Translations under genes and position numbers: made by a program
Notes under the pieces: model-generated
Databases searched by the model: none
The model's input: the letters and a program-made list of their open reading frames with translations, nothing else
What the model was told of the DNA's origin: nothing
NCBI GenBank assembly: GCA_964542675.1
Contig: CAZIUH010000002.1
Span: forward strand, 98-64,097
Length of the DNA: 64,000 bases
Source of the DNA: an uncultured Candidatus Saccharibacteria bacterium
GTDB lineage: Bacteria; Patescibacteriota; Minisyncoccia; Phycocordibacterales; PALSA-1337
Direction of reading: 5' to 3'
Part shown: positions 4,106-62,257 of the stretch, piece after piece
Numbering within the stretch: the stretch's first letter is position 1
How the letters are laid out: each line of letters begins with the position of its first letter

Positions 4106-4147
4106 ACTTGTGACGAAGGTTTAGCCTGAAAATGCTATAATCCCTTC

Positions 4148-5227
4148 ATGTCATCATTAACCGACTGGAATCTATACGCCACCAACGAAGATGCCTGGAA
4201 TGCTATGCTCGTCGACTGCGCGCAGGCAAAAGAGAGTATAGTTCTGGAGCAATTTATTTTTGTGGCCGATGATTTCGGGCAAAGACTCATAGATATTTGC
4301 GCCAAGAGAGCCGCTGAAAGCGTCAAAGTACGATTTCTTTGGGATGCCGCCGGTAGCTTCACATTTTGGGGTTCTAATATCGCCGAAGATTTGCGACAAA
4401 AAGGTATAGAACTTATGTTTTGGCGAACTCTTATCCCAGGATACTTCAAGACTCCAAGTTTGCGTTCTTGGTTTTTGAGAAACCATCGTCGCACTTTGGT
4501 TATCGACAGTGAGATCGGATATACCGGCAGTATTTGCATGAATGATCGCATGAAGAACTGGCGCGACACGAATCTTCGATTGGAAGGTATCGCGGCAAAA
4601 CAAATGGAAAAAGCGTTCAATCGCATGTGGGAACGCGCCCACGGTTCCAAGAATTTGCCCGGACACGCCCGCGTGAAAGATCACGAGTTTCGTTATGTCA
4701 CGAATTACCCCGCACCGGGAAGAAGACATATCAATTATGAACTCATAAAAGCCGTGCGCAACGCGAAAAAATCCATCCTGATCACGACTCCGTATTTCAT
4801 CCCGACTCATCGTCTGGCACGCGCGCTCAAACTGGCGGCCAAGCGCGGTGTAACGGTGAAAATAATATTACCCGAAAAATCCGATTATTACGCTGTTGAT
4901 CTTGGCGCGCGTTCGTATTTCAACACGCTCCTTGAAGCTGGCGCGAAAATATTCCTATATGAAGGTAATATGATACATAGTAAAACGGTTACCATTGACG
5001 GTATTTGGTCAACTGTCGGTACAATGAATCTGGATAATATCAGCATGCTCTATAACTTTGAAGCGAATATCGTGAGCACGAATGTCAAATTCGCCCATGA
5101 ATTGGAAAAGCATTTCACCGATGATCTCGCTGAGTCCAAGGAAGTTATCTTGAATGAATGGCATAACCGCTTCTTCGTTGAAAAAATTCCCGAGATACTC
5201 ATTCGTTTGGTTCGCAAATTCTTATAA
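4148..5227 (+). CDS. phospholipase D family protein, cardiolipin synthase-like
   Basis: Two PLD-type motifs: a degenerate HRRTLVID and a canonical HSKTVTIDG...GTMNLD (HxKxxxxD). 359 aa. Confidence 0.7.
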   Translation: MSSLTDWNLYATNEDAWNAMLVDCAQAKESIVLEQFIFVADDFGQRLIDICAKRAAESVKVRFLWDAAGSFTFWGSNIAEDLRQKGIELMFWRTLIPGYFKTPSLRSWFLRNHRRTLVIDSEIGYTGSICMNDRMKNWRDTNLRLEGIAAKQMEKAFNRMWERAHGSKNLPGHARVKDHEFRYVTNYPAPGRRHINYELIKAVRNAKKSILITTPYFIPTHRLARALKLAAKRGVTVKIILPEKSDYYAVDLGARSYFNTLLEAGAKIFLYEGNMIHSKTVTIDGIWSTVGTMNLDNISMLYNFEANIVSTNVKFAHELEKHFTDDLAESKEVILNEWHNRFFVEKIPEILIRLVRKFL

Positions 5228-6675: not shown

Positions 6676-6739
6676 CCTCGGAGAAGCTAGAGCCGGGTCC
6701 TCCTTTCCCTGCCTCTATCTCTCTCCGAGGTCTTTTTTA
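6676..6739 (+). terminator. candidate terminator after rplT (long stem plus T-run)
   Basis: CCTCGGAGA...TCTCCGAGG stem followed by TCTTTTTT. Convergent with the beta-CASP gene. Confidence 0.4.
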
Positions 6740-6769
6740 TGCGTAAGGTTCAATCTTATGCATATAAGA

Positions 6770-8215
6770 TTAAACCTCAATGGACTGTAAATTAACTTTG
6801 TCCCCTATTTTCGGCACGACTGCTTTCACTTTCAGTTCTTCATTTATTTTCTGCGCCAAAAACATCGATGCTTTCGGCTCGCCCATGGTGACAAAAACTT
6901 GTTTCAGACGGTTTGTGGCATTAGAAACAAATCCTAGAAGATGATCACTGTCTTTATGCGCTGAATAACCGTACAATTTTTCAATACGCGCGTGAATTTG
7001 TACTTTCTGTTTGTGAATATGAACTTTTTTCGCTCCGTCAGCCAATCGCCTGCCAAGAGAACCAACTGTTTGATAGCCGACTAACAGGATCGTATTCTTG
7101 GAATCAGGCAAATATGTTTCTTCATGACCTGTAACTCTCCCGCCAACCGACATGCCTGAACCAGCCAGAATTATTTTGGCGCCTTTTATTTTATCTATGT
7201 CTCGCGATTCATTCTGGGACATGATGAATTCTAGATTTTTGAAATCAAATATATCATCACCTTTAGCTATTTGATTTCTTACATAATCATTAAAAAGGTC
7301 AGTATTTTCCGCATAAATTTTCGTCGCTTTTATCGCCATGGGAGAATCCACGAATATTGGAATTGACGGGATTTTTTTCTGTTCAACCATATTATTTAGC
7401 TCATACAAAAGGACCTGCGTGCGATCTATTGAGAAAGTTGGAATGACCAATGTCCCGGCATAAGCGATTGTTTTTTTTATTACCCTTTCGAATTCGCTCA
7501 CTCTTTGTTCCTTCGATTCATGGTTGCGGTCCCCGTAAACACTTTCCATTATTAGATAATCAATATCACCGATAGATTCCGTGTCTTGGAGTAACGGCGC
7601 CGGTGAATTGCCGAGATCTCCGGTAAATAGAATTCTAATCAGATTCGTGTCACTTCCATCTTGCGTACTTGCGCGTTTGCGTACTTGCGCACTGATCTCC
7701 ACCATCGCTGATCCGAGAATATGGCCCGCGTCTTTGAGAAGAATGGATATACCCGGGACAATCTCCAAATTTTCATGATATCGAATAGTACGCCACAGTA
7801 GAAAAACAACCCGAATATCATTCAAGTCAAATAATGGCGCGACACCGTCTTGTCTGGCTTCAAGGGCGAGAATACCAGCGGCATCCGTCAGAACCAATTC
7901 GGCAAGTTCCTTTGTTTGAGGAGTTGAATAAATGACGCCATGGAAGCCTTCCTTAACCAGTTTTGGAATGCGACCGATGTGATCGAGATGAGCATGGGTT
8001 ACAATCAGAGCTTGAATGGAAACCGGATTGTATGGAAAAGGTTCGCGATTTTTCTCTTCATCAAATCGCTCTCCTTGCATCATGCCGCAATCCACTAATA
8101 TTTTTGAATTATTCGCGAAATCATTTTCTTGACTGCCTTCACGTTCAAGTAAAAAATTTGCTCCGGTGACGGCACCGACTCCGGAACAAAAAGTTATTTG
8201 TAAAGCTTTTGACAT
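6770..8215 (-). CDS. MBL-fold metallo-hydrolase, beta-CASP/RNA-metabolising type (RNase J/CPSF-like)
   Basis: HAHLDHIGRIPKL metallo-beta-lactamase motif, about 480 aa, and a C-terminal region typical of beta-CASP nucleases. Confidence 0.65.
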   Translation of the reverse strand: MSKALQITFCSGVGAVTGANFLLEREGSQENDFANNSKILVDCGMMQGERFDEEKNREPFPYNPVSIQALIVTHAHLDHIGRIPKLVKEGFHGVIYSTPQTKELAELVLTDAAGILALEARQDGVAPLFDLNDIRVVFLLWRTIRYHENLEIVPGISILLKDAGHILGSAMVEISAQVRKRASTQDGSDTNLIRILFTGDLGNSPAPLLQDTESIGDIDYLIMESVYGDRNHESKEQRVSEFERVIKKTIAYAGTLVIPTFSIDRTQVLLYELNNMVEQKKIPSIPIFVDSPMAIKATKIYAENTDLFNDYVRNQIAKGDDIFDFKNLEFIMSQNESRDIDKIKGAKIILAGSGMSVGGRVTGHEETYLPDSKNTILLVGYQTVGSLGRRLADGAKKVHIHKQKVQIHARIEKLYGYSAHKDSDHLLGFVSNATNRLKQVFVTMGEPKASMFLAQKINEELKVKAVVPKIGDKVNLQSIEV

Positions 8216-8565
8216 AGAAAAACAATGATACCTCCGCCGATAATATCATTGAATAAATCTTTCGCGGTATCAATATAATACGGCATAGTCCAAAGCGGAG
8301 CACTTGCGATATTGTAATATATTTCGAATGATTCCCAGATCATTCCCATAACTAAAACACCGATAATAATCACGCGGCCCTTATGCGCAATATTACCGCC
8401 GTGCAGTTTCACGGCCGCGCAAACGGCTAAACCGACGCCTATTCCGCCTAATATATGCATGAAAATATTGTACGACGGACAAGCTGCGTACATACCATTA
8501 ACGCCAACGATATGAGTAATAAGCACGAGACAAAGAATGACAAGAGAATAAAAGTATATGCGCAT
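8194..8565 (-). CDS. small integral membrane protein (4 predicted TM), unknown function
   Basis: 123 aa and highly hydrophobic. GGAGG SD 5 nt upstream of the ATG. Preceded by a structured leader. Confidence 0.5.
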   Translation of the reverse strand: MRIYFYSLVILCLVLITHIVGVNGMYAACPSYNIFMHILGGIGVGLAVCAAVKLHGGNIAHKGRVIIIGVLVMGMIWESFEIYYNIASAPLWTMPYYIDTAKDLFNDIIGGGIIVFLCQKLYK

Positions 8566-8823
8566 GAACCTCCATTATAGTTTATTTTCCCGAAAGAACC
8601 AAGAACATGTCTTTTCTTGGTTTTGTCGTAACGCGAAACAAAAACACCCCAACATACATCGGGATGTTTTCGATCGATCGCGAGAGTACCATACCTGATA
8701 CAGTCAGGTGGGTGGCCTCACATCGAACACCAAAGTGCCGACGAATTTGAATGCAAGCATTCATTGGCCTCCCAAAATTTACGGTATAGGGTTTTACTCT
8801 CGCAATCTGTATATATTTTATTC
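8566..8823 (-). promoter_or_regulatory. structured 5' leader (riboswitch/attenuator-like) of the small membrane protein gene
   Basis: A 9-bp closing stem (GCGAGAGTA/TACTCTCGC) encloses about 110 nt with several internal hairpins. Followed by a hairpin CCAAGAAAAGACATGTTCTTGG plus TTCTTTC about 25 nt before the SD. Confidence 0.4.
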
Positions 8824-9432
8824 CTATTCGAAAATCCCGTCCATATTGACATCGTACAGTATTCGCTCCGTAATGATTTTATAATTCATTATCTCCTCCT
8901 TTTTGAACCAATGAGTGATTTCATCTTCGGCTTCTTTGACTGAACCGGAAGCATGCACGACATTGCGCACAGCACGACCATCTATATCGCTCATAACGTA
9001 TGAATCAAGCACATAATCGCCACGAATAGTACCGACATCGGATGTTCTAGGTTCCGTTCCACCGGTCAATTTCCTGACAAGTTCTACCGCGTGGGCTCCT
9101 TGCCAGACCATAGCCACAACCGGACCACTTGTCATGTATTTTACAAGATTCTTGAGCACAATTTCCGTGACTTTCATTGGGTCAGTATACGGTGGTTTGA
9201 GATCTTTGTCCGTGTATCCCTTTATAGTCTTTATACCAGTTTTCATGCGCCATTCTGGATCCAGAGTATAGTGCCTTTTAACCAAATCCGCTGTCGGCAC
9301 TAACATCTTTATACCTATTAATTTCAGTCCGACTCTTTCATAACGCTTCACTACTTCCCCGATTAAACCTCGCTGTATCCCATCTGGCTTGATAATGACC
9401 AAAGTTTTTTCATCTTTATGATGTGTTTTCAT
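8824..9432 (-). CDS. ndk: nucleoside diphosphate kinase (with insertion/extension)
   Basis: VIIKPDGIQRGLIGEVVKRYERVGLKLIGIKM... and the YVLDSY...HASGS region match NDK. It is 202 aa, longer than typical. Confidence 0.8.
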   Translation of the reverse strand: MKTHHKDEKTLVIIKPDGIQRGLIGEVVKRYERVGLKLIGIKMLVPTADLVKRHYTLDPEWRMKTGIKTIKGYTDKDLKPPYTDPMKVTEIVLKNLVKYMTSGPVVAMVWQGAHAVELVRKLTGGTEPRTSDVGTIRGDYVLDSYVMSDIDGRAVRNVVHASGSVKEAEDEITHWFKKEEIMNYKIITERILYDVNMDGIFE

Positions 9433-9496
9433 AGTTGTTGATTATAACGGTAATTATGTTGTTGAAGCAAGCATGACCGCACGGTATTCCAAATAA

Positions 9497-10276: not shown

Positions 10277-10870
10277 CTACACCAAACCAATCATTTTCAC
10301 AATATCAGTGTGAATTTCCGGAATCGATCTTTCACCATTCACGTCATGAAAAATATATAATGGATTGTTCCTGTAATAATCAATTGTTGGCACTACTTCG
10401 GTTTCATACCAATCAAGCCGCGCTTCTATATCAACTTCTTTATCATCTTCCCTCTCTCTCGCGAGCATTCTCTCTTTTGACCAAGCTCTTGAGACATTAA
10501 TAAATATAACATGTGGCTTTTCGCGTTTGTAAAATTCAAAAGCGGTATTCAAAACTTTGGCTTCGTTGATTTTCCTCGGTGTACCATCGGTAATGAGATG
10601 CGTATTATTCGTCAGATTTTTCACAAAAAAATCCGACCACAAATGTATAGTCAAAAATTCCGGTTGCAATCCGCCTTCTTTGTTAATAGCTTTTGATAAT
10701 CTTTGAGAATATGATTGCCCCATGACAAAATCGCGGAAAAGTTTACCCGTTTCCATATAAGTGATCGGGATTTCCGAAGATTTTTCCGCTAGTACCTTAC
10801 GTAACAGATCCGCCTGCGTACCTTTGCCGCAACCAGAACGTCCGATAAAAATATAAGTTTGTGGGGTCAT
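10277..10870 (-). CDS. adk: adenylate kinase
   Basis: P-loop GRSGCGKGTQADLL. Conserved position downstream of secY. Confidence 0.8.
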   Translation of the reverse strand: MTPQTYIFIGRSGCGKGTQADLLRKVLAEKSSEIPITYMETGKLFRDFVMGQSYSQRLSKAINKEGGLQPEFLTIHLWSDFFVKNLTNNTHLITDGTPRKINEAKVLNTAFEFYKREKPHVIFINVSRAWSKERMLAREREDDKEVDIEARLDWYETEVVPTIDYYRNNPLYIFHDVNGERSIPEIHTDIVKMIGLV

Positions 10871-10913: not shown

Positions 10914-13772
10914 TCATTGAATAATCGTCTCCTCCTTCTCATATTTCTTCATAATCTCCGTTTCAACATCCGCCCTTGGCCTACCGAATGTGAGGAATGA
11001 AAGTTCTTTCAGTTTATCAACCTGTTCCATGTTCCCTTTCGATCTCGGCATCGCTTGGATATTGAACGGCTTCAAAGGTTTACCATTCGCGAGTAATCGA
11101 ATATACGCGCAGAAATTATTCTGATTCACAATATCTTTCGCCGTGAATGTCGGGGCAAATTGTTTTTCCATTAACTCCGCATCCTCCGTGCCGAGACGAT
11201 ACGCCGCCATGGAGCCGACATTGCCGAAAACGGCATTTTTTATCTTATCATCAAGCTGGCCGATGAATTGGTGAGCGAGCGTGAGAGCCAGACGATATTT
11301 GCGCGCTTCGGATAGAATCGTCGCGATGGAATCCGTCGTGATATTCTGGAATTCGTCCAAATACAGGTAGAAATCCGGCATATTTTTGCCGAATGAATCC
11401 ACGCGCGATAGCGCCGCCATCAGGATTTTGCCGACTAAAATAAGTCCGATCAAATGAGAGTTGATATCGCCGAGCCTGCCCTTTGAAAGATTGACTAGTA
11501 ATATCTTCTTATTATCCATAATATCGCGCATGCTAAAAGAAGATTTTTCCTGCGCGATAATAGGTCGCATTATTTCATTCGCCAGGAATACGTCGAATTT
11601 CGACGTAATATACGGAACTACATTTGCCAATGACACTTCCCCACCGGCTTTTTCCGCGATTTCTCTCCAGAATTGAACTATAATCGGATTCTTGCATCTG
11701 GAAATTTTCAAGTCGCGAAATACTTTGTTTGACATAACGCGCGAAACATCGAGCAGAGTGCATCCGGATTCCGGATCTTCTATGACAAGACCGGTTGCGT
11801 TGCGAAAATACTGTTCAAATATTGGGCCCATAGATTCCGGTATGGCTCCGTACAATTTTTGAAAAATAGAAAACATCTCGTTCACGACAAAAGTTTTCTG
11901 TTCCGGAAAATTCTGATCATATTCGAGCATATTGAGAGCCATAGGGCGATCGACGGATGCGGGATCAAAGTAAACCAAATCCTTGAATCTTTCAGATGGT
12001 ATTGAGGCTAGAATATCGACAACATCGGAACCGTGAGGATCTATGAAACAGACGCCATTTCCCGCTCGAATATCTTGAATGATCATATTCTTGAGAAGCG
12101 TGGTTTTACCAGTTCCAGTCTGACCGATAACATAGAGATGACGCATTCGGTCTTCCGGTGCTATGAAAATATTTGTTTTCACTCCACGGTTTTCATTGAC
12201 ACCGAGTAATGTCCCCGATTCCGGAACGCCGAGCGGCGCCGGCGCCGTACCAGAAGCGCTTTGTTTCAATTGCGGCGCGGCGGGATGAATATTGCTTGCC
12301 GGGAAATGCATGCATGTCGTCAACTCCTCAAGATTCAAAATCACCTGCTCGTCCTCGTCAAAAGTGCGGAGTGAAAATTGTTCCAGAACTTCTTGCAATC
12401 TTCCGCTATTCTTACCACCGAAAATATGATGCCCGGTCCCGACCTTTTTCCATTCAATTCTATTGCCATATCCATTCTCCATCTGATTGAAACTTGATTC
12501 AAGATCATTCAGAACGCTTTGTGCCTCCGCTTCCGTAGCCGCCGAAGTCGCTATACGCAAATTGACAGAAATGAATGGACTTTTCAGCTTTCGCGTGAAC
12601 TGATCTATAATCGCCTGATCAACGGCTTGCGCCCGTTTCACTTCCGCCTCCTTTTCCTTTTCCATGGCTTTCTGGCCCTTGAAAAAATCAGTCATTCCCC
12701 TGCCTATATTGCTAATAGCCGAACGACCGACTTCTTCCAGAGCTTCTCCGATTTTCTTACCATTCCGAACTTTTTCGAGAACTTTGGTGCATTCTTTGGC
12801 ATAACCATCCTGTCTTTTTCCGACAATCATCTGTATAGCCGCGCCTTCACCCATTCGGTCAATTTTGGAAAAACCATTCAGAATCGCGTTTAGCGGATCA
12901 ATATCGAAATCTTCGTATGATTTGAGAGGATACAACGGATGTTTCGAAAGCGCGGCATAAGACACGGCGCATGCGCCGTCAGAGTTGAAAATATTGTAAT
13001 CGTCCTTGTGTTCATGGACATGACTACCGGGAAATACGGCCATGATTTGTTTTTCAAATAAATCTTCGCGCGCCGTCGGCACGGAGACGTAGAAAATGAA
13101 TTCATTACTGCCGTTCGAGTTCGCGATCTCCACGGAGAACCATGCGGGATTTTCTTTATCATCTGTAATAGAGAGCATTCCCGCATAGAATTGTTCCATG
13201 CCGGAAATGAGTTCGCTTAATTGCTTTTTTTTGTCTTCCTCACTGGCCTCCGGCAGAGACACTTCAAATAGAGTCATATGAAGTGGTTTCCATAGAGGAT
13301 CACTTTCATTCAAACCTTGAATAGAGTAACCGGAGGAAATGAATTGGACCAAGAATCGATGGAGATCGTCGTAGAGATGCGGATTATTCATTTTTTCCAC
13401 GACATGAATAGCGTTCTTTACGCCCTTTTCTTGAATAACCGCGAGGAGTTCGCTCATTTGCGCGTCATGTGTTTCAGGCGAAAGCTCCAACACTATTTCA
13501 TTCGCCTCATGATCCTTAAGCGTGTATTCCGGCGCCAAAACTTGATGAGGTTTCGCCGCCGAATAATCTTCTACCACCCGCTTAGCGACCGCGCGTTCAG
13601 TTACACTCTCCCCTTTTTTCTCCGCGGCCGAATGCCGTTCAGCCACGATCCCGCGCAATCGCGCCAATTCCTCTCCAGGATTTTTGACCGGCTCGCGTCC
13701 TTCAAATATTGTCGGGTTCATGGGTAAATTATAGCATATGTTGAACGATATCAGGATAGTTTTCTGATGCAA
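10914..13772 (-). CDS. large protein with a C-terminal P-loop NTPase resembling type IV secretion/conjugation coupling ATPases (VirD4/TraD/TraG-like); N-terminal half unknown
   Basis: HLYVIGQTGTGKTT Walker A, FIDPHGS, and LYLDEFQN...LAHQ (Walker B / HerA-TraD-like). About 450 aa of unknown soluble N-terminus. Inserted between secY and adk. Confidence 0.5.
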   Translation of the reverse strand: MHQKTILISFNICYNLPMNPTIFEGREPVKNPGEELARLRGIVAERHSAAEKKGESVTERAVAKRVVEDYSAAKPHQVLAPEYTLKDHEANEIVLELSPETHDAQMSELLAVIQEKGVKNAIHVVEKMNNPHLYDDLHRFLVQFISSGYSIQGLNESDPLWKPLHMTLFEVSLPEASEEDKKKQLSELISGMEQFYAGMLSITDDKENPAWFSVEIANSNGSNEFIFYVSVPTAREDLFEKQIMAVFPGSHVHEHKDDYNIFNSDGACAVSYAALSKHPLYPLKSYEDFDIDPLNAILNGFSKIDRMGEGAAIQMIVGKRQDGYAKECTKVLEKVRNGKKIGEALEEVGRSAISNIGRGMTDFFKGQKAMEKEKEAEVKRAQAVDQAIIDQFTRKLKSPFISVNLRIATSAATEAEAQSVLNDLESSFNQMENGYGNRIEWKKVGTGHHIFGGKNSGRLQEVLEQFSLRTFDEDEQVILNLEELTTCMHFPASNIHPAAPQLKQSASGTAPAPLGVPESGTLLGVNENRGVKTNIFIAPEDRMRHLYVIGQTGTGKTTLLKNMIIQDIRAGNGVCFIDPHGSDVVDILASIPSERFKDLVYFDPASVDRPMALNMLEYDQNFPEQKTFVVNEMFSIFQKLYGAIPESMGPIFEQYFRNATGLVIEDPESGCTLLDVSRVMSNKVFRDLKISRCKNPIIVQFWREIAEKAGGEVSLANVVPYITSKFDVFLANEIMRPIIAQEKSSFSMRDIMDNKKILLVNLSKGRLGDINSHLIGLILVGKILMAALSRVDSFGKNMPDFYLYLDEFQNITTDSIATILSEARKYRLALTLAHQFIGQLDDKIKNAVFGNVGSMAAYRLGTEDAELMEKQFAPTFTAKDIVNQNNFCAYIRLLANGKPLKPFNIQAMPRSKGNMEQVDKLKELSFLTFGRPRADVETEIMKKYEKEETIIQ

Positions 13773-13799: not shown

Positions 13800-15083
13800 T
13801 TAATACTCCCTCATCGCGACCTGGGCGTCTATCTTCTTCAAGAGATCCAGAACCACGGAAACAACGATGAGAAGCGCGGTGCCGCCGATAGCAACGGAAC
13901 GATCACCACCATTAAAAGCGGAGATAATAAGCGGTAGAATGGCAACAGTACCGAGGAAAAGCGCACCAACAAGAGTGATGCGGGTAACGATATTGGCAAT
14001 ATGATTTTGAGTATGTTCACCTGGTCTAATTCCCGGAATGAATGCGCCAGAATGTTGCAGGTTCTCGGAAATCATCTTCGGGTCGAATGTTACGGCCGTA
14101 TAGAAATACGTGAAAGCCACAACCAAGACAAAGTACATAATGCCGTAAACCCATTGATTATTCAGGAAAATAACAGCCGATGAAGCTATGCCGGAAATAG
14201 TCGTATTGGAAACGTGCGACAGAAAATTGGCGATAATTTGAGGAAAGATGAGAATCGAAAGAGCGAAGATTATGGGGATAACGCCGGCTTGATTCAAACG
14301 TAAAGGCAAATAGGTCGAAGCGCCACCATAAACTTTATTGCCACGAACTTGCTTGGCATAAGTCACAGGTACTGATCTTTCAGCTTCAGTAACATAGACA
14401 ACACCGGCAGTTACTATTACCGCAACGACGAGGACCGCAACATAGATAGGAATAGACGAAGGTCCCGCTGAAATAATTTTCTGATAGGCTTGAATAATGT
14501 CCAGAGGCAATCGCGAAACAATACCGGCAAAAATGATAAGTGATACGCCGTTACCTATACCAAATTCAGATATGAGTTCACCAAGCCACATAAGGAGCAT
14601 GGAACCAGCGGTAATAATAATCGAATTAAAGACAAGTGACGTCGTCGTAAGATGCGGTAATACATTCTGAGACTGAAGAAGCATGATAAAACCAATAGCG
14701 GAAATAAAGGAAAGAGGCACGGCTAGAAGTCGTGAATATTGTGAGAGTTTCATCCTACCCGCCTCTCCTTCCTCGTGCATGAGCGCCTTCCATTTTGGGA
14801 ACATCATGGTAAGAAGCTGAATGACGATAGAACCAGTGATAAAAGGGCCGACTCCAAGCATTACTATTGAAAGATTAGAAAGTCCGCCACCGGAAAAAAT
14901 ATTGAAAAGACTGAAAAATTGATTGGATGAAAGGAGCTTTGCCAGAGCCGCAACATCAACGCCGGGGATAGGAATGGTCGCCATGACACGAAATAATACG
15001 AGTATTCCAACGGTAAAACCAATTCTTTTCCTTAGAATTGGATCCTTGAGCGCGCTTAAGAATTTTTGCCAAAAGTTTTGCAT
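13800..15083 (-). CDS. secY: preprotein translocase subunit SecY
   Basis: 427 aa, 10 TM, GGGLSNLSIVMLGVGPFITGSIVIQLLTMMFP. Confidence 0.93.
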   Translation of the reverse strand: MQNFWQKFLSALKDPILRKRIGFTVGILVLFRVMATIPIPGVDVAALAKLLSSNQFFSLFNIFSGGGLSNLSIVMLGVGPFITGSIVIQLLTMMFPKWKALMHEEGEAGRMKLSQYSRLLAVPLSFISAIGFIMLLQSQNVLPHLTTTSLVFNSIIITAGSMLLMWLGELISEFGIGNGVSLIIFAGIVSRLPLDIIQAYQKIISAGPSSIPIYVAVLVVAVIVTAGVVYVTEAERSVPVTYAKQVRGNKVYGGASTYLPLRLNQAGVIPIIFALSILIFPQIIANFLSHVSNTTISGIASSAVIFLNNQWVYGIMYFVLVVAFTYFYTAVTFDPKMISENLQHSGAFIPGIRPGEHTQNHIANIVTRITLVGALFLGTVAILPLIISAFNGGDRSVAIGGTALLIVVSVVLDLLKKIDAQVAMREY

Positions 15084-18675: not shown

Positions 18676-20220
18676 TCAATGGTATGAATATGAAAATTTT
18701 ATTTTTTTCTTTTTATCCTTTTTGATCTTTCTTGCTCGATTCATATTCATGGATTTTTCCTCCGGCGTTGGTTCTGGTCCCAAAAATAAGAAATGTAGCT
18801 TACGAATTTCGTCTTGTGGCATAATGGAAAATTCGGCATTATGATCAGCCGATAATTCCTTAAATTTCCTGTCATATTGAAGTGCTTCTTCATGCACTTG
18901 CAATGCCGTGTTATTCAATCCCAGAAGATGTAGCCCAGTCAAAGACCTGAGTCGAGACAATGCCACATAACCCATTCCTTTCTCGAATGATTGGGACAAA
19001 TCTATGTATGCCGCGTCCAAAGACATGCCTTGGCTTTTATGAATCGTGATCGCCCAAGCAAGACGAAGTGGATATTGTTCTATCTCCGCGAGTAATCTAT
19101 CATCGTCTTCAACGCGCCACTTTTCTTTTTCAACATGAATATTACCTCTAGTCGTACGCACGATAATTGATTCATAACCGCAATTTTCGACAATCCCGAG
19201 CGTGCCATTCACGTAACCTTTCTCATAATTATTCTTGACGAACATGACTCGCGCGCCGTGTTTCAAGCGCAAATTGGCAGGCGCCAAGCAACTTTTTTTC
19301 AAACCTTCAACAATCCGTTTATTGCCATGGCTATCCATTTGATATTCGAATACTCGTCCGCCGAGCTTAGCCAGCTCGCGCTCATTCTCGACATCTACAT
19401 TCAAATTGTGAGAATATAATTTCGTTGGTTCAATCCCAGAATTCGGGATCGCTCCTGAGCCGACGCTCCCCGTAGCGGACTTTAGCAAAGCGGAATGATT
19501 AGTGACCCCCGGAGGGAATGTGCCGGCGATACGAGTGGCTGACGACCGACTCCGAAGCAGATCAATAATATCCTTTGTGACTTTGGCGTCTCTAATAGCG
19601 TTCAAAATAGCCAAATATTGCGGGTCGTTTTGGCGGAATTGTTCTTCAAGATAACAAACTATAAATTGGGTTTCTTTCCAGGCTCTTGAATGATAAGCGA
19701 ACTCTGAACTTCCACTCTTATTATATTCATCACATTCGAAAAGTTGTCCATTATCGTCGCTTGGAGAATATGCAGACGCGCGCGAAATAGGCGGCAATTG
19801 AAAAAAATCTCCACAGACTATTATTTGTAAACCACCGAATGGTAAATGTGAATTGCGTACACGTTTCAAAACCCGATTTATCATATCCAATCGGTAATGA
19901 TGCAACATTGAAACTTCATCGATAATCAATACTCTTGCCGCCATTATTCTTTTTGCGGTATTCTCTTTTCCGGCAATTTCATCAATATCATATTCACTAA
20001 GCTTATCCTTTACCCCTATTCCCGCCCAGGAATGTATAGTTATGCCACCCATATGCGTTGCCGCTATACCTGTGGATGCCGTCACGCCAACAGGTATTCC
20101 GCGTTCACACAAGCAGGTCAAATATTCCCGCAAAACATGTGTCTTTCCGCTTCCGGCCGCGCCAGTTAGAAATACATTCGCCCCGGTTTTCAGAATCTTG
20201 AGAGCTTCAACTTGAGTCAT
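18676..20220 (-). CDS. PIF1/RecD-like ATP-dependent DNA helicase (AAA_30/Pif1 family)
   Basis: Walker A GAAGSGKTHVL, LIIDEVSM Walker B, QLPP, C-terminal SH3-like/HTH region, Lys-rich tail. Inserted between rplE and rpsZ. Confidence 0.8.
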   Translation of the reverse strand: MTQVEALKILKTGANVFLTGAAGSGKTHVLREYLTCLCERGIPVGVTASTGIAATHMGGITIHSWAGIGVKDKLSEYDIDEIAGKENTAKRIMAARVLIIDEVSMLHHYRLDMINRVLKRVRNSHLPFGGLQIIVCGDFFQLPPISRASAYSPSDDNGQLFECDEYNKSGSSEFAYHSRAWKETQFIVCYLEEQFRQNDPQYLAILNAIRDAKVTKDIIDLLRSRSSATRIAGTFPPGVTNHSALLKSATGSVGSGAIPNSGIEPTKLYSHNLNVDVENERELAKLGGRVFEYQMDSHGNKRIVEGLKKSCLAPANLRLKHGARVMFVKNNYEKGYVNGTLGIVENCGYESIIVRTTRGNIHVEKEKWRVEDDDRLLAEIEQYPLRLAWAITIHKSQGMSLDAAYIDLSQSFEKGMGYVALSRLRSLTGLHLLGLNNTALQVHEEALQYDRKFKELSADHNAEFSIMPQDEIRKLHFLFLGPEPTPEEKSMNMNRARKIKKDKKKKIKFSYSYH

Positions 20221-20322
20221 GGAAACATTATAGAGGAATATTCAAAAAAGACACATTGATGGGTTCGGTAAAACATGTTGATAAACAAAAACACGGATTG
20301 ATTCGTATTTTTTTATAATTTA

Positions 20323-21967: not shown

Positions 21968-22174
21968 TTATTTATCTTCCGTATTCATCGCGTTTACCGC
22001 TGTCATTATCCTGGCAATATCTTTTTTTACCGCTTTACCCTCCTTTACGTTCTTGGTCTTCGCCCCCGCTCCGCCGAAGCAAAATACGCGCAAAATTTCC
22101 CGTTTTTCACCGAGCATTTTGGCAAGATCTGCGTGCGTCTTATTCTTTATGTTCTTCATTTTTATTGCTTTCAT
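21968..22174 (-). CDS. rpmC: 50S ribosomal protein L29
   Basis: MKAIKMKNIKNKTHADLAKMLGEKREILRV... Start taken at the internal Met; the upstream ORF extension overlaps a hairpin. Confidence 0.75.
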   Translation of the reverse strand: MKAIKMKNIKNKTHADLAKMLGEKREILRVFCFGGAGAKTKNVKEGKAVKKDIARIMTAVNAMNTEDK

Positions 22175-22282
22175 GATATAAAAAAGCTCATCCGAGCTAT
22201 GAAAAGATATTATCAAGTAAGTTTAATCAAGTCAATAGAAGTCAATAGAAGTTGTTATTTGTACTCATGGTATAATGAGCGT

Positions 22283-23476
22283 ATGAAGACTATGCCACCA
22301 TTGATATATAGTTCACAGACTCAAATAAATCTGTTCTCAACAGATCCAGTTGAGACTTTGAACCTAAAAAATCCGTATTTTAGTTCTCATCTAATTACTT
22401 ACATCGGAAACAAGCGACGCTTGCTTCCTTTTCTCCACAAAAGTTTTTTGAAAGTTCGTGAGAAAATCGGCACACGTAAACTTGTCATTCTTGATGGATT
22501 CGTTGGAAGTGGTGCCACGGCACGATTACTGAAATCCTTCGCAAGTGAGCTTCATGTGAATGATCTAGAAGACTACTCTGAAACCATAAATCGCGCTTAT
22601 CTTGCTAATAGAACAAAGATTAATCTAGATGAACTCGAGAAAAATATAAACTGGTTAAACAAAAATAAATTACCAATAAATAACACATACAAACCTGGGT
22701 TTATCGAGAGAAATTATGCGCCAAAAGATGATAAAAACATTATGCCTGGAGAAAGAGTCTTTTATACAAGAAATAATGCACGGATAATTGATTATGTTCG
22801 TCAACTGATTGAGGAAAAAATCCCAACAGAATATAAACATCTCTGTCTCGCTTCATTATTGGTGAAAGCATCTGTAAATACAAATACGTCTGGAGTTTTT
22901 AAAGGTTTTCATAAAAAAGATGGTAATGGGCATTTTGGAGGACATAGTGAAAATGCGTTGTCACGGATTAAGAGAGAAATAACGCTCGACACGCCAATAT
23001 TCTCTGAGTTTGAATGCCCTGTAACCGTTCATAAACGAGACATAAATGAACTAATAACGGACAGCAAGCTACCAATATTTGATTTGGTTTATTATGATCC
23101 CCCATATAATCAACATCCTTATGGATCAAACTATTTCATGTTAAACCTAATCAATAGTGGAAAAGAGTGTGAGATTCAAGATGGAGTTAGTGGCATAATA
23201 AAACATTGGAATAAATCAGCATATAATAAAAAAAATGATGCTGAGGATGCTATGGAAAGATTATTACGGGATACACGCGCAAGATTTGTTGTAATTTCAT
23301 ACAATGATGAAGGTATAATACCTGTGAGTAATTTCAGAAATATATTGTCAAAATATGGAAAGATTGAATTAATGGAACAAGAATATAACACCTATCGAGG
23401 TTCAAGAAATTTAAATAATAGAAATATAAAAGTTAAAGAACTTCTCTGGATATTAGAGAAAACAAATGCTAACTAA
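22283..23476 (+). CDS. site-specific DNA N6-adenine methyltransferase (D12/Dam-like, alpha class)
   Basis: FxGxG-type motif I (LDGFVGSGA) and DPPY catalytic motif (VYYDPPYNQ). TATAAT 8 nt upstream of the chosen ATG. Convergent with, and overlapping, the EcoRI-like restriction endonuclease gene. Confidence 0.75.
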   Translation: MKTMPPLIYSSQTQINLFSTDPVETLNLKNPYFSSHLITYIGNKRRLLPFLHKSFLKVREKIGTRKLVILDGFVGSGATARLLKSFASELHVNDLEDYSETINRAYLANRTKINLDELEKNINWLNKNKLPINNTYKPGFIERNYAPKDDKNIMPGERVFYTRNNARIIDYVRQLIEEKIPTEYKHLCLASLLVKASVNTNTSGVFKGFHKKDGNGHFGGHSENALSRIKREITLDTPIFSEFECPVTVHKRDINELITDSKLPIFDLVYYDPPYNQHPYGSNYFMLNLINSGKECEIQDGVSGIIKHWNKSAYNKKNDAEDAMERLLRDTRARFVVISYNDEGIIPVSNFRNILSKYGKIELMEQEYNTYRGSRNLNNRNIKVKELLWILEKTNAN

Positions 23477-24086
23477 TCGGAAAATAATGTTTGATTGCCA
23501 TTTCCGCCACATCAGTAATAATATTCAGCATTTCATTAATTTTCCAATCTTTATGCCGGAAAAACATGGAAACTGGTTCAAACGGTAAATTATTTTTTTG
23601 TATAAAAAGCTTTTTCAGAGGGAAAAAATCATTCATTGTCACAACTCGATCACGAATTGTTGATTCATCCTTGAAATCATCACCACTTCCAAAACATACA
23701 AAAGGAATGACTTCCTCTTTTTTGAAGATTGCTCGAATCCCAATCAGATTTTTTCCGAGCCGTTCAACGGCATTTCCTCTTGCTTGTTTTGGTAATCCTT
23801 CATCTTTTCGTTTATCATTAGTCCCTTGCCTTTTTACTTCAGCAATAAGAATAAGCCTCCGACTTCCATTTTTGTCAGTAGCATAGAGAAACCCTCCATC
23901 TGGTTTAATATAACTCCTTTTCAAGACCTGAGAAAACTCCTGGGAATATTCTGGATATTCCAGACGTAAGTCATTGATTATTGTTGAAAGTAATAATTGT
24001 TTTTTATGTTCAAAAATCAGTTGTGGATATTTTTCACCTAAACGCTTCATAATTTTTTTAACAACTATCATAATGTCACTATCCAT
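23469..24086 (-). CDS. Type II restriction endonuclease, EcoRI/RsrI/MunI family
   Basis: KPDGG...LILIAEVKRQG (PD-ExK) and ARGNAVERLGKN closely parallel EcoRI KPDGG...LVAEAKHQG...AAGNAIERSHKN. Confidence 0.75.
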   Translation of the reverse strand: MDSDIMIVVKKIMKRLGEKYPQLIFEHKKQLLLSTIINDLRLEYPEYSQEFSQVLKRSYIKPDGGFLYATDKNGSRRLILIAEVKRQGTNDKRKDEGLPKQARGNAVERLGKNLIGIRAIFKKEEVIPFVCFGSGDDFKDESTIRDRVVTMNDFFPLKKLFIQKNNLPFEPVSMFFRHKDWKINEMLNIITDVAEMAIKHYFPIS

Positions 24087-26426: not shown

Positions 26427-27401
26427 ATGCGCTATAATACGAATATGACGATATTTAGTCGTAAAGTAGTCAGAGAAAACATGATAAAGGTATGGGACAA
26501 ACACCGCGCTGTTACCTGTATCCTCACAGTCATCGTCCTCGCCATTATATTCGGGGCTTGGTACGGTCAAAATAATATCAATATTTTAACGAAAAATGTA
26601 AACGATCTTTCTTTGCAAATCACTTCCTTAGAAAACAAATTATCATCAACAACCGTGGGACTTCAAGAAAATATCGCAAAGACGCATGATTCCCTTTCCA
26701 ACGAACTCAATCAAGAAAAGCAAAATTCCGCGGCGATAGAACAAAAACTTGGTAGTTATCAACAACAAGTTACTTCGGTCACCGGCACCATAGACACTTT
26801 GCAGAAACTTAGCAAAACTGATCCACAACTATTACAGAAATATTCCAAAGTTTTCTTTTTGAATGAATACTACTCTCCAGCCAGACTGACCGAGATACCG
26901 GGCGATTATGCGTACAGCGATACAAGAATATTGAAATTTGAGACCGATGTATGGCCACATTTGAAACAAATGATAGATGACGCTAGAAATAACGGCATCA
27001 TTATATATGTTTATTCGGCGTTCCGTTCATTCAACGAACAGAACGCCATTAAAGGCCAATACAAAATCACCTACGGCGCCGGTAGTGCCAATTCATTCTC
27101 CGCGGATCAAGGATATTCAGAACATCAGCTCGGTACGACTGTAGATCTCATCACAACCGGTCTAGGAGGTTCTCTAGACGGCTTTGACGGCACAAAGGCT
27201 TACGCATGGCTAACTGACAACGCATACCGCTACGGCTTCATCCTTTCATACCCGAAAGACAATTCATTCTATGTCTATGAACCGTGGCATTGGCGTTTCG
27301 TCGGAGTGAAACTAGCTACCGATCTTCATAATCAAAACAAAAACTTCTATGATCTAGATCAGAGGAAGATCGATGAATATCTGGTCAATTTCTTCGAATA
27401 A
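26427..27401 (+). CDS. peptidase M15 family D,D-carboxypeptidase (VanY-like) with N-terminal TM and coiled coil
   Basis: YSAFRSFNEQ and GYSEHQLGTTVDL motifs of M15B/VanY-type carboxypeptidases. Confidence 0.7.
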   Translation: MRYNTNMTIFSRKVVRENMIKVWDKHRAVTCILTVIVLAIIFGAWYGQNNINILTKNVNDLSLQITSLENKLSSTTVGLQENIAKTHDSLSNELNQEKQNSAAIEQKLGSYQQQVTSVTGTIDTLQKLSKTDPQLLQKYSKVFFLNEYYSPARLTEIPGDYAYSDTRILKFETDVWPHLKQMIDDARNNGIIIYVYSAFRSFNEQNAIKGQYKITYGAGSANSFSADQGYSEHQLGTTVDLITTGLGGSLDGFDGTKAYAWLTDNAYRYGFILSYPKDNSFYVYEPWHWRFVGVKLATDLHNQNKNFYDLDQRKIDEYLVNFFE

Positions 27402-27480
27402 TTATATTCCCCGCATAACATTCGGTCAAAACACAAAAAAACCACTGTTCAAAAATGAACCGTGGTTTTTTTGCTTGGAT

Positions 27481-27738
27481 TTATGACAAATGCTTAGAGA
27501 CAAGTTTAGTCATTTCGAACATATTGACCACATCTTTACCGCCGAATACTTTTTTAAGATTCTCGTCGGCATTGATATTACGCTTATTCTTCGGATCCTG
27601 AAGATTCTTCTCCTTGATATAGACCCAAAGTTTCTTCACGACTTCAGACCTGGGCATCGGACCGACACCGACAACGACTGCTAAGTCCGCACTGATATTA
27701 AGCGGCTTCATAAACGCAGAATTTGATTTTGTTGGCAT
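27481..27738 (-). CDS. SWIB/MDM2 domain protein
   Basis: PMPRSEVVKKLWVYIKEKNLQDPKNKRNINADENLKKVFGGKDVVNMFEMTKLVSKHL matches the SWIB consensus. Confidence 0.8.
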   Translation of the reverse strand: MPTKSNSAFMKPLNISADLAVVVGVGPMPRSEVVKKLWVYIKEKNLQDPKNKRNINADENLKKVFGGKDVVNMFEMTKLVSKHLS

Positions 27739-27811
27739 ATGTTTCTATTATGTCCTAATAAGACTTACATAATAGCACATTCAAGGAAATATTAGGAGAT
27801 GGCTAAAGACA

Positions 27812-41487: not shown

Positions 41488-43500
41488 TTATTGCGGTTTT
41501 TGGAGATATTCTTTGAAGGCGTCCCAGATATTGGCTGTTGGTATTGTACTTACTGTTGTAGCCGGTTGTACCGTGACTTGCGATGAAACACCAACAGCAT
41601 AGTTTGGATTATCAGACAAATATTCATAGAAGTTCGGTACGATATTTTGAGCCGAAAACGTTGTATTATCGATTCGGAAAACAACGCTTCGTACTGTGGC
41701 TGAATTGAATTTTGTCATTTTGTTGCATAGAGATGTATTGCCACCTATATCACCGATCCATACAGCCGAGACTCCGGACGGACAACTCAAATAAAGCGCT
41801 GATGACACTGCGTTGCTATGTGTAGTGAAGTTCAGGGTTACAGTACTACCAGAATTAACCATTGAAACAGAAGGGGTGATAGAGAGTGAGCCAGTAGGAG
41901 TACTTGAGGTTACGGTAAAGATATGTGTGTTACTATTCTTTCCTATAGTCAGATCAGAATCATTAACCACACTCAGTCCATATGATCCAATCGAAACTGA
42001 ACCTGGAATAGCAAAAGAGATTGTTGAACCGTTACTTGAAGAGGCTAGATAAGTGTTTCCGGCAATTAGAATCCGATTATATGAACCAAAACCTGAACCC
42101 GTAATCGAAACCATGCTTCCTACTGGACCTGATGTTGGATAAATAGAAGTTATAGATGATTGGGGTAAATCTGATATTTTAGGATTAATTAGAGTTACTA
42201 TATGTCCTGCACTTGTTTGACCCGATGAGTTCGTAACATAGACCGCAGGGAATCCAGATGGTAATGATGGAACAATAAATCTTGCAGTTGTACCATATGT
42301 TTCTGTTACCGTAACAGGGTTTGTTGAACCGCCAACTTTTACTGACAACATTCCACTAAGCCCAGTACCATAAATGGTTGCCCAATTATTTGCATGGATA
42401 GTATTTTCAGGATCGCCAGCTGATTGGACATTCGAAATAGTTGGTCTAATTGAAGTTACATCTGAAGCCGTTGTCTGTGTCGTTACCTGTGTTGGCGTAA
42501 TACTAGAAGCAGGAATTATACCTACCGCTTGCGTGCCATCGGTAAATTCCACATAAATCTTTCCACCACTGAACCTAGAACTTTCTGGTTGGCCATATAG
42601 TTTGAGATTGTATGTGCCAGTACCCGTCATAATATTCTGATTATAAACAGTATTCACTTGTGAACCATCACGAGTGACTACAAGTGGATATGGTGTCTCT
42701 TTGTAACCATAAAGATCTGCTCCATCATTCAAGTAACGGGAATCCCCTGTTGACCATACTTCACCAGCCAAATTGTGCTTGACTGTAATACGAGAAATTG
42801 TTTTTTGTGAAGGAAGTGTTACGGTTGCATACCATTGCCAATCATTCGGATTTGAATTTACATTGGCGGCATTTGGACTAAACTGACCCCAAGCACCAGC
42901 TTTGTCTTCTCCAGCATAATAGAGATACGCGGATACAGTAGTGCCGGGAGCTTGGGACGTATCGGTTTTGATATTGGTGCTGGTATTGGTATTAGCATTT
43001 GTACCTGTCAATGAAGATGCTGTACAAACCGTATTGAACTTCGCACGCGTCAGAGGTCCAAAGTATGATTCGGTAATACCATTCGCATTTTGATATCGTT
43101 GTAATGCCGTTACCGTTTGAGAACCATAATATCCCTTCGTGGCTTGTCCAGAAGATATTGCTGGAATATCATAACCGAGTTTCATAAGCCATGATTGGAG
43201 AGTTTCTACATCTATTCCCATGCTTCCTTGTCGTAGATTTGTTGTATATTGATAGCATTTATTACTATTTGTGGCTGTTGTGACTGTCGTATCAGTTGTC
43301 GCTTTACAAATATATCCAGTAGGACAATTTGATATTTGTGCGACGGGAGTACATATATACCCTTCCGGACACGCGGGAAGCACAGTACATATGTAACCTG
43401 CAGGACAAGTAACGGCCTCCACATTCACTGGACTCGACACTAGTACCACGAACGCGAAGATCGCAATCGGTACAAGTGACGAAATTAATATTTTTTTCAT
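41488..43500 (-). CDS. secreted protein: signal peptide, three CPxGYIC(T/K) Cys repeats, peptidoglycan-binding (PG_binding_1-like) domain, Thr/Ser-rich Ig-like C-terminal region
   Basis: MKKILISSLVPIAIFAFVVLV signal. CPAGYICT, CPEGYICT, CPTGYICK repeats. LQSWLMKLGYDI...TVTALQRYQNANGI. 670 aa. Inserted between fusA and tuf. Confidence 0.6.
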   Translation of the reverse strand: MKKILISSLVPIAIFAFVVLVSSPVNVEAVTCPAGYICTVLPACPEGYICTPVAQISNCPTGYICKATTDTTVTTATNSNKCYQYTTNLRQGSMGIDVETLQSWLMKLGYDIPAISSGQATKGYYGSQTVTALQRYQNANGITESYFGPLTRAKFNTVCTASSLTGTNANTNTSTNIKTDTSQAPGTTVSAYLYYAGEDKAGAWGQFSPNAANVNSNPNDWQWYATVTLPSQKTISRITVKHNLAGEVWSTGDSRYLNDGADLYGYKETPYPLVVTRDGSQVNTVYNQNIMTGTGTYNLKLYGQPESSRFSGGKIYVEFTDGTQAVGIIPASSITPTQVTTQTTASDVTSIRPTISNVQSAGDPENTIHANNWATIYGTGLSGMLSVKVGGSTNPVTVTETYGTTARFIVPSLPSGFPAVYVTNSSGQTSAGHIVTLINPKISDLPQSSITSIYPTSGPVGSMVSITGSGFGSYNRILIAGNTYLASSSNGSTISFAIPGSVSIGSYGLSVVNDSDLTIGKNSNTHIFTVTSSTPTGSLSITPSVSMVNSGSTVTLNFTTHSNAVSSALYLSCPSGVSAVWIGDIGGNTSLCNKMTKFNSATVRSVVFRIDNTTFSAQNIVPNFYEYLSDNPNYAVGVSSQVTVQPATTVSTIPTANIWDAFKEYLQKPQ

Positions 43501-56037: not shown

Positions 56038-56149
56038 ATGACAATTATAGCAGAAACACGAGACAGGCAGGCAAGTTTTTTCAAATCCGAGTATTTATTT
56101 CACCCTTAAAAAACTCGCCTGCCTGTCTCGTGTTTCTGCGTAGACTGAA

Positions 56150-62241: not shown

Positions 62242-62257
62242 GATAGTTAATTGGGAA

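Follow-up and report, generated by a model that had tools for sequence, protein, structure and literature searches.

Patescibacteria account for a very large share of bacterial diversity and live as epibionts with tiny genomes. According to Quiñonero-Coronel et al. (2025; PMC12102498), their type IV secretion systems (T4SSs) derive from monoderm conjugation systems and are essential for growth on hosts, relaxases are rare to the point of near absence, and 5,713 homologues of the coupling ATPase VirD4 are found in 2,918 patescibacterial genomes, 148 of them near virB4; exaptation has been suggested. The type IV coupling proteins, or T4CPs, are kin to the double-stranded DNA pumps FtsK and SpoIIIE (PMC12857230) and include, as class iii of Llosa and Alkorta, proteins without a transmembrane (TM) domain, such as TraJ of pIP501, which is paired with the membrane protein TraI (PMC7431656). 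In the VirB4 ATPase of plasmid R388, the N-terminal domain mediates dimerization and binds VirB3 and the tails of VirB8 (PMC9259494). Here we describe a gene found in a 64,000-nucleotide stretch of DNA (positions 98 to 64,097 of contig CAZIUH010000002.1; hereafter, the window) from an uncultured “Candidatus Saccharibacteria” bacterium. The source names of the homologues place this member of the Patescibacteria in the Paceibacteria/Parcubacteria group. Its product is a cytoplasmic, TM-less P-loop ATPase that combines a helical extension, a DUF8128 core with a predicted VirB4-like fold, and a coupling-type nucleotide-binding domain with an all-alpha insertion. It resembles a coupling protein or VirB4 yet lacks defining features of each.

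The reading frame is open throughout positions 10914..13772 of the minus strand, 952 codons when counted from a TTG, and the first-pass annotation had accordingly listed a 952-aa protein. The frame is real, but the protein is almost certainly 935 aa long, with its start at the ATG at 13721, because an identical 935-aa database protein (P0001; 100% identity, recorded on at least 5 metagenomic contigs) begins there, every homologue in our alignment begins at the same Met, and a −10 promoter box lies just ahead of it. The coding sequence of the DUF8128 and coupling-type ATPase therefore spans 10914..13721 (minus strand), with the TGA stop codon at 10914-10916. The in-frame upstream stretch to the TTG (13722..13772) is absent from all homologues, contains the −10 box, and is probably untranslated. 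This is not a chance open reading frame (ORF): the databases hold more than 3,214 homologous proteins, and at least 589 of 600 pattern matches examined in species genomes of GTDB encode a relative.

Domain architecture of the ATPase

The C-terminal P-loop ATPase domain, of the VirD4/VirB4/HerA type, covers aa 503 to 935 (10917..12215; minus strand, as for all parts of this gene) according to Pfam and NCBIfam matches, an AlphaFold (AF2) model, and Foldseek searches. Its Walker A motif, GQTGTGKT (aa 533 to 540; 12102..12125), is invariant in 16 homologues and aligns with the Walker A motif of TrwB, the T4CP of R388. It is followed by the motif FIDPHGS (aa 559 to 565 in the 935-aa numbering), an invariant Walker B region, LYLDEFQN (aa 786 to 793, with D789 and E790; 11343..11366), which aligns with LWLFIDEL of TrwB, and the segment EARKYR...LAHQ (aa 805 to 818; 11268..11309), which phmmer aligns with TrwB over invariant columns. 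LAHQ itself occupies aa 815 to 818, and the invariant R807 and Q818 align in phmmer with the GRK...GLQS segment of TrwB, where the arginine finger and sensor residues of that protein are located. The motifs that the first-pass annotation had read from the sequence (GQTGTGKTT, FIDPHGS, LYLDEFQN, and LAHQ) are all there. Between Walker A and Walker B lies an all-alpha insertion (aa ~608 to 736; 11514..11900), marked by helices 113-241 of the model, the alignment with TrwB, and the Pfam match TrwB_AAD_bind; judging from the model, this helical insertion of ~130 aa would be the counterpart of the all-alpha domain of TrwB.

Two Pfam families score above their gathering cutoffs, TrwB_AAD_bind (29.6 bits versus 20.5, spanning only 44 residues) and T4SS-DNA_transf (29.3 bits versus 20.1, spanning only 121 residues), with weaker matches to DUF87/HerA, TraG-D_C, and FtsK_SpoIIIE, the last with 16.8 bits against a cutoff of 24 and in the Walker A region only. 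The top NCBIfam models, TraD and VirD4, give 34 to 50 bits versus curated cutoffs of 250 to 647. Among VirB4 models, VirB4_plasma of NCBIfam matches at an E value of 1.8e-6 and TIGR00929 reaches 14.9 bits versus a cutoff of 643; the VirB4 families of Pfam (CagE_TrbE_VirB, AAA_10, and P-loop_TraG) show no match at E values up to 1. A phmmer search of PDB sequences finds TrwB as the best and only matching solved structure. The AlphaFold model of aa 496 to 935 (pLDDT 87.5, pTM 0.89) likewise retrieves TrwB first in Foldseek (E value of 1.5e-12, ~440 aligned columns, TM-score of ~0.62), followed by DotL and Cagβ; the C-terminal domain of VirB4 (PDB 4ag6) is matched with an E value of 1e-8 and a TM-score of 0.70 when normalized to the target. 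PADLOC reports a match to mad8 of the MADS defense system (E value of 7.8e-14), as well as to HerA and DndH. Within the FtsK-HerA superfamily, the domain thus falls in the VirB4/VirD4 branch; it leans toward the coupling proteins and is a canonical member of neither group. The initial view of this half as a HerA/FtsK-superfamily ATPase akin to VirD4/TraD holds, with Pfam scores above cutoffs and TrwB, DotL, and Cagβ as the best structures. What would have spoken against it, profile matches that place the protein among plain ABC or AAA+ ATPases, did not occur.

The N-terminal half had been described as novel. It corresponds to Pfam DUF8128 (PF26449), and its model resembles in fold the VirB4 N-terminal domain. 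The DUF8128 label comes from the precomputed Pfam assignment of the identical protein P0001 and of the full-length homologues listed with it; our local Pfam scan, in which the DUF8128 model was not reported, matched nothing over aa 1 to 500, and our literature search found no article mentioning DUF8128. The core itself (aa ~143 to 478; 12288..13295) is an alpha/beta domain predicted to adopt the fold of the N-terminal domain of VirB4/TrwK. In the AlphaFold model of aa 1 to 500 (pLDDT 79, pTM 0.71), most of this alpha/beta core has pLDDT values of 82 to 96, with low-confidence loops at aa ~331 to 370 and ~431 to 440. When this model was compared with solved structures in Foldseek, as had been proposed for this half, the 13 top matches were all chains of TrwK, the VirB4 of R388 (E values of 4e-4 to 1.5e-2). 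Since a P-loop is absent from the query and the matches include no P-loop protein besides TrwK, the match must be to the N-terminal domain of TrwK (residues 15 to 400). An invariant HFP motif (aa 472 to 474) is followed by a conserved linker, APQLKQ...G..P.P (aa 479 to 502; 12216..12287), which is evident from the alignment and has low pLDDT.

In front of the core, the long, ~920-aa form of the family alone carries a helical extension (aa 1 to 140; 13302..13721; helices 15-129 of the AF2 model), whereas the ~800- to 840-aa relatives and gp156 of Bacillus phage G begin to match only at aa ~143 to 173. The extension contains an invariant His/Asp/Glu cluster, SPExHD (aa 81 to 86) and NPHLxDDxHR (aa 113 to 122), encoded at 13356-13481, with E83, H85, D86, H115, D118, D119, and R122 as its invariant columns. 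In its residue pattern this cluster, part of an extension specific to the candidate phyla radiation (CPR), resembles a putative metal-binding or catalytic site; no family was matched.

The N-terminal half contains no TM helix, as had been noted from the start: the highest Kyte-Doolittle 19-mer average of the protein, 1.82, falls at aa 753 to 771, a core helix of the ATPase, versus 2.75 in SecY and 2.48 and 2.15 in the N terminus of TrwB, which served as controls. An amphipathic helix is found in one of the low-confidence loops (aa 335 to 348; 12678..12719; pLDDT below 50 at aa 334 to 346). Its hydrophobic moment of 0.73 is the highest in the protein, the segment of gp156 of phage G aligned to it is a TM-like helix (Kyte-Doolittle 2.28), and it may represent a peripheral membrane contact.

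Relatives, genomic neighborhood, and transcription

The best 120 of the more than 3,214 database matches are full-length, 57 to 85% identical to the window protein, and almost all ~920 aa long. With the N-terminal half as the query, 951 cluster representatives were retrieved, whose full-length forms measure either ~900 to 1,000 aa or ~800 to 840 aa. Beyond the CPR, the protein matches PHROG family phrog_5156 over its full length (E value of 1.8e-76; aa 149 to 926 versus positions 28 to 807 of the 824-position profile). This is the family of gp156 (825 aa) of Bacillus phage G, which BLASTP aligns over aa 173 to 885 with an E value of 1e-39. No CPR-type relatives were found on viral contigs. PF26449 is assigned to many homologues from Bacillaceae and Paenibacillus. 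Among these, the 883-aa, TM-less protein WP_248290882 of the Shouchella clausii plasmid NZ_CP012476, annotated as “DUF87,” aligns with the window family in hhalign over 660 columns (probability 99.6%, E value of 4e-24). Its gene is directly followed by a relaxase-type one, for Replic_Relax, and then by genes for TcpC, TcpE, and AAA_10 (VirB4), and the same layout surrounds the gene for a 913-aa DUF8128 protein on a 63.6-kb plasmid of Bacillus subtilis (OX419581). The homologues on Bacillales plasmids thus head monoderm Tcp-type transfer clusters, the place where a coupling protein would be expected, and the window protein is the Paceibacteria orthologue of this family. Our literature search found no experimental study of the DUF8128 relatives from Bacillales or phage G. 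The plasmid pLS20 was considered as an experimentally studied relative and set aside: its T4CP is a conventional one with two TM helices, and OX419581 is a different, Tcp-type plasmid.

In phage G (locus L084, 3448-7587), the gene for gp155, a VirB4/TraG-type P-loop protein, lies directly upstream of that for gp156, which has a TM-like helix at aa 183 to 201, so that a conjugation-like ATPase pair resides within a jumbo phage. Outside the CPR, the ATPase half has its closest relatives (32 to 33% identity) in stand-alone “T4SS DNA-binding domain” proteins encoded on plasmids of Sulfitobacter (L085) and Bradyrhizobium (L086) amid genes for transposases, a recombinase, and CHAT and TPR proteins, not in T4SS clusters. 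Of the 197 plasmids with a match, 169 are typed as non-mobilizable. The transposase and CHAT/TPR contexts of these stand-alone proteobacterial proteins offered no clue to function.

In the window, the ATPase gene lies between secY (13800-15083) and adk (10277-10870), as had been proposed, and adk is followed by map, ndk, and the genes for DUF2238 and a beta-CASP RNase. The gene context was compared within ±6 kb in 80 loci from genomes of different species; in 78 of them a single ORF represents the gene. The recurrent gene order is L15-SecY-Adk-Map-ATPase-NDK-DUF2238-betaCASP, followed by L20, L35, and IF3 on the opposite strand. At least one of SecY, Adk, Map, and NDK is encoded within this distance in 39 of the 80 loci; Map is immediately upstream in 11 of 78 loci, and NDK is immediately downstream in 19. 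The succession SecY-Adk-Map, zero to two genes, and the ATPase gene is seen in 26 of the 80 species genomes, in none of which do infA through rplQ lie within 6 kb. Only in the window genome, of the 80 compared, does the gene stand between secY and adk, as if an old neighborhood had been rearranged locally. The closest relatives by identity (65 to 72%) no longer have the SecY-Adk-Map/NDK neighborhood. In ~8 loci the division cluster RsmH-FtsL-FtsI-(MurF) directly precedes the ATPase gene, and the homologue in Gracilibacteria is also found amid housekeeping genes, next to those for RuvX and SSB.

The protein diverges at about the rate of SecY and Map. Across the same 17 genomes, homologues are a median 53.6% identical to the window protein, versus 57.7% for SecY, 56.3% for S5, 55.1% for Map, and 44.0% for Adk. 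A level of identity like that of SecY, Map, and S5 points to vertical inheritance under strong constraint. The ATPase gene of Paceibacteria is chromosomal.

An uncharacterized pair of proteins (clusters c14 and c15; 422 and 96 aa) adjoins the ATPase gene in ~11 of 78 genomes, for example at 6679-8239 of locus L004 and ~4260-5822 of L021, and sometimes stands between Map and the ATPase gene. The larger member (~420 to 495 aa) is probably a coiled-coil protein, given its subthreshold match to a coiled-coil Pfam family, and the smaller has ~96 aa. The two are candidate partners or substrates of the ATPase. As partners in the window genome they were rejected, since the window encodes no homologue of either and an informative Pfam match is absent.

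Earlier it had been thought that the ATPase gene replaces the genes usually found downstream of secY. In tblastn searches with Escherichia coli queries, infA, rpsM, rpsK, rpsD, rpoA, and rplQ indeed gave no match in the window, whereas E. coli Adk, S8, and L20, used as positive controls, were found. The absence of infA through rplQ from the window is therefore confirmed, but not their replacement: Adk and Map still follow, and in the 26 genomes with the related order infA through rplQ are more than 6 kb away. These genes are located elsewhere across the lineage. The ComEC gene (50014-51393) and the type IV pilus genes (58469-63955), which had been called nearby and tentatively linked to the ATPase in DNA uptake or transfer, lie 36 to 50 kb from it, as do those for RecJ, RNase H, PilB, PilC, and pilin-like proteins. 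Neither comEC nor pilus genes are among the recurrent annotated neighbors in the 80 loci, in which no search was aimed at them; the three loci in which their sequences were clustered (L001 to L003) come from the window organism's own contigs. A joint role with ComEC and pili in DNA uptake is possible and finds no support here.

Six nucleotides ahead of the ATG ends an extended −10 promoter element, TGCTATAAT (13728-13736, minus strand), and no Shine-Dalgarno sequence precedes this ATG. Among 14 loci in which the exact start could be placed, 12 (11 of the 13 related genomes plus the window organism's own contig) have a TATAAT box 6 to 8 nt before the ATG, 10 of them perfect and 2 with one mismatch, often with an upstream TG; a Shine-Dalgarno sequence is present in none of these loci. 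Because the −10 box is so close to the ATG and no Shine-Dalgarno sequence is found, the gene is probably transcribed as a leaderless mRNA from its own promoter. The pattern TATAAT-N5-8-ATG has 13 matches in the window versus 4.5 expected, 7 of them at ORF starts without a Shine-Dalgarno sequence: PLD (4136-4150, plus strand), PGK (56035-56049), Pif1 (20218-20232), HlyD (32252-32266), DUF2238 (8563-8579), NDK (9430-9446), and the ATPase gene (13719-13733), the last six on the minus strand. This suggests, from motif counts, that leaderless transcripts are widespread in the lineage. No terminator-like site was found between secY, the ATPase gene, and adk; a common operon with secY is nevertheless not assumed, as the conserved −10 box directly at the ATG argues for a separate transcript. 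Given this probable leaderless transcript, adjacency to secY tells little about function, and we infer that the place beside secY reflects an old neighborhood and not a functional operon.

The S10-spc ribosomal cluster of the window (18676-43500) is repeatedly broken by non-ribosomal genes, and the ATPase gene is one such break among many. The others include, after EF-G, a gene for a 670-aa peptidoglycan-binding protein (41488-43500), an MFS transporter gene between L3 and L4 (37197-38441), a group between L2 and S3 (26427-34541) that encodes a tRNA-binding protein, a DEAD-box helicase, an HlyD/ABC/MacB set for efflux, a histidine kinase, and a VanY peptidase, a pair encoding an EcoRI-like endonuclease and a D12 methylase (22133-24086), and a Pif1 helicase gene between L5 and S14/S8 (18676-20220). 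Two further ORFs, at 56958-58472 (504 aa) and 48870-49844 (324 aa), match no Pfam family at E values up to 0.001; the former is flanked on one side by the gene for triose-phosphate isomerase and on the other by pilin-like genes belonging to the type IV pilus cluster.

Comparison with known coupling proteins and translocases

With the T4CPs (TrwB of R388, VirD4, TraD, DotL, and Cagβ), the window protein shares aligned Walker A and B, arginine, and glutamine motifs and the all-alpha insertion. It differs from them in having ~500 aa of soluble N-terminal domains instead of the N-terminal TM domain typical of most, though not all, T4CPs, in the confinement of sequence similarity to short motif regions, in subthreshold NCBIfam scores, and in that the Paceibacteria gene is not linked to relaxase or T4SS genes. 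Such linkage, a feature of T4CPs, does hold for the distant relatives on Bacillales plasmids. The TM-less T4CPs are similar as coupling-type ATPases that need a partner to dock on the membrane (PMC7431656). However, no partner gene is adjacent here, and a VirB4-like N-terminal domain is not described for them in that work, the comparison being by description only. VirB4 (TrwK of R388; PDB 7O42 and 8RTD) combines, in much the same way, a soluble alpha/beta N-terminal domain of ~340 to 400 aa with a P-loop C-terminal domain, and it is similar in size and likewise TM-less. Unlike VirB4, the window protein shows no N-terminal sequence similarity to it and no match to a VirB4 Pfam family, and its gene is not found beside virB3, virB6, or virB8.

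The DUF8128 ATPases of Bacillales plasmids and gp156 share the DUF8128 core and the ATPase across ~700 residues, and the Shouchella protein is also TM-less. They are, however, only 22 to 25% identical to the window protein, lack the first ~140-aa extension, and are encoded in transfer clusters or beside a VirB4-like gene, whereas the Paceibacteria gene is an orphan amid housekeeping genes. The HerA helicase is set apart by its HAS-barrel N-terminal domain and its partner NurA (or other effector), neither of which is seen here, and FtsK/SpoIIIE by a motor domain that is matched below threshold, in the Walker A region only, and by a TM anchor that the window protein lacks. Very probably, the gene is one of the 5,713 patescibacterial T4CP homologues counted by Quiñonero-Coronel et al.; like those orphan VirD4-like genes, most of which are far from virB4, it fits the idea of exaptation. 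The consulted text of that study (PMC12102498) gives no account of the domain architecture, the missing TM helices, a VirB4-like domain, the synteny, or the Bacillales and phage relatives.

The class of TM-less T4CPs (PMC7431656) and the orphan VirD4-like genes of Patescibacteria (PMC12102498) were thus already known. New, as far as we have seen, are the VirB4-like fold predicted for DUF8128, the combination of a VirB4-type architecture with a coupling-type motor, the conserved housekeeping synteny and rate of divergence, and the relationship with proteins of Bacillales plasmids and of phage G.

Possible functions

In the explanation that we favor, the ATPase would assemble into a hexameric ring, like TrwB and VirB4, and, because TM helices are absent, would use its VirB4-like N-terminal domain to dock on components of the membrane, perhaps helped by the amphipathic helix as a peripheral contact. 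Through ATP hydrolysis it would then pass DNA or protein, as its macromolecular substrate, into a channel, most plausibly a relaxase-independent, monoderm-type T4SS encoded elsewhere in the patescibacterial genome. The presence of the Bacillales plasmid relatives in monoderm clusters agrees with the monoderm origin reported for patescibacterial T4SSs (PMC12102498). Taken as a whole, from ring and membrane docking to substrate delivery into a T4SS channel, this model deserves about as much credence as doubt.

Several observations weigh against it. No T4SS genes (virB4, virB6, virB8, or trsD) or relaxase gene were found in the window, where none of the ORFs of VirB4 size encodes VirB4, and no T4SS or relaxase gene is among the annotated recurrent neighbors in the 80 loci, about half of whose immediate neighbors are unclustered and unannotated; the link to a patescibacterial T4SS can therefore only be inferred. 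In “Ca. Southlakia,” a T4CP homologue, which may or may not be of the DUF8128 type, was reported to be non-essential whereas other T4SS genes are essential (PMC12102498). The NCBIfam scores are far below every curated cutoff, and HerA (Foldseek E value of 5e-11) is almost as good a fold match as TrwB. The hhalign matches to TrwB (probability 92%, E value of 5e-7) and to a VirB4 profile (83%, E value of 9e-6) span only the Walker A region, so that the family does not fall clearly within either the T4CPs or VirB4. As to the N-terminal half, its VirB4-like fold is predicted from one AlphaFold model: an hmmsearch of the DUF8128 profile against PDB sequences gave no sequence support for the link to VirB4, and hhalign detected no N-terminal similarity to a 30-sequence TrwK/VirB4 profile, to a Gram-positive VirB4 of the AAA_10 type, or to gp155 of phage G.

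The orphan location of the gene could instead mean that a DNA translocase has been exapted for housekeeping, either for FtsK-like chromosome segregation and clearance at division or for DNA uptake with ComEC and type IV pili as a means of nucleotide scavenging. Divergence at a housekeeping rate would fit this view, as would the exclusively housekeeping neighborhoods, including the ~8 division-cluster loci and the RuvX/SSB locus of Gracilibacteria, the lack of linkage to virB4 and the rarity of relaxases in the phylum (PMC12102498), the kinship of T4CPs with the FtsK and SpoIIIE pumps (PMC12857230), and the presence of ComEC, RecJ, and type IV pilus genes in the window genome. However, we saw no conserved link with comEC, pil, or ftsK, adjacency to the division cluster is limited to ~10% of the loci, the gamma domain and TM anchor of FtsK are absent, and the FtsK_SpoIIIE score stays below its cutoff (16.8 versus 24 bits), which leaves this explanation doubtful, though worth weighing. 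The layout of two domains within 800 to 935 aa, the absence of TM helices, an N-terminal fold matched by VirB4 only, the target-normalized TM-score of 0.70 with 4ag6, and the VirB4_plasma match (E value of 1.8e-6) would all suit a divergent VirB4 paralogue, an ATPase that assembles or energizes the system by pilin dislocation or channel biogenesis, with the T4CP matches reflecting the shared ancestry of VirB4 and VirD4. Such a paralogue is unlikely, in that CagE_TrbE_VirB, AAA_10, and P-loop_TraG show no match and T4CPs give the best matches in both sequence and fold; moreover, Bacillales plasmids and phage G encode a separate canonical VirB4-type ATPase beside or near the homologue, and the two are therefore not redundant. 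Equally improbable is a broader reading in which the DUF8128 ATPases represent a third branch within the VirB4/VirD4 clade, a surviving link from VirB4 to the T4CPs that retains an N-terminal domain of the VirB4 type alongside a coupling-type motor and was domesticated in the CPR as a core relaxase-independent motor; a candidate role for it would be to move DNA or another macromolecule between epibiont and host, or inward for nucleotide scavenging.

It is very unlikely that the gene was left behind or carried in by a mobile element, or belongs to an anti-phage defense system, and lies in the ribosomal cluster by chance. The matches in PADLOC (mad8 with an E value of 7.8e-14, HerA, and DndH), the proteobacterial plasmid relatives of the ATPase half amid transposase and CHAT/TPR genes, the phage homologue gp156 of phrog_5156, and the EcoRI-type restriction-modification pair and Pif1 helicase in the same cluster could be read in that way. 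However, the gene is carried by hundreds of species genomes, diverges like SecY and Map, and keeps its housekeeping synteny, no CPR-type relative was found on viral contigs, and integrases, transposases, and partner nucleases or methylases are not conserved neighbors. Scarcely credible is a Sec-associated motor for export through SecYEG, as might be imagined from the adjacency to secY here and a distance of 2 to 4 genes in ~20 other genomes: the gene probably has its own promoter, what surrounds it is no more than the end of the spc operon, Adk and Map intervene in other genomes, secY is not nearby in about half of the loci, and the protein does not resemble SecA.

Should the protein turn out to be an ordinary T4CP paralogue that works with the known T4SS, the result would be a useful annotation and no surprise. 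The analysis assigns the Paceibacteria gene a defined anatomy, that of a soluble ATPase with a predicted VirB4-like docking domain, shows that its constraint is at the level of housekeeping genes, and connects it with experimentally tractable relatives in Bacillus phage G and on plasmids of Bacillus and Shouchella. The family bears on the divergence of VirB4 and VirD4, on how Patescibacteria energize and load their T4SSs, and on what the thousands of orphan VirD4-like genes in these genomes do.

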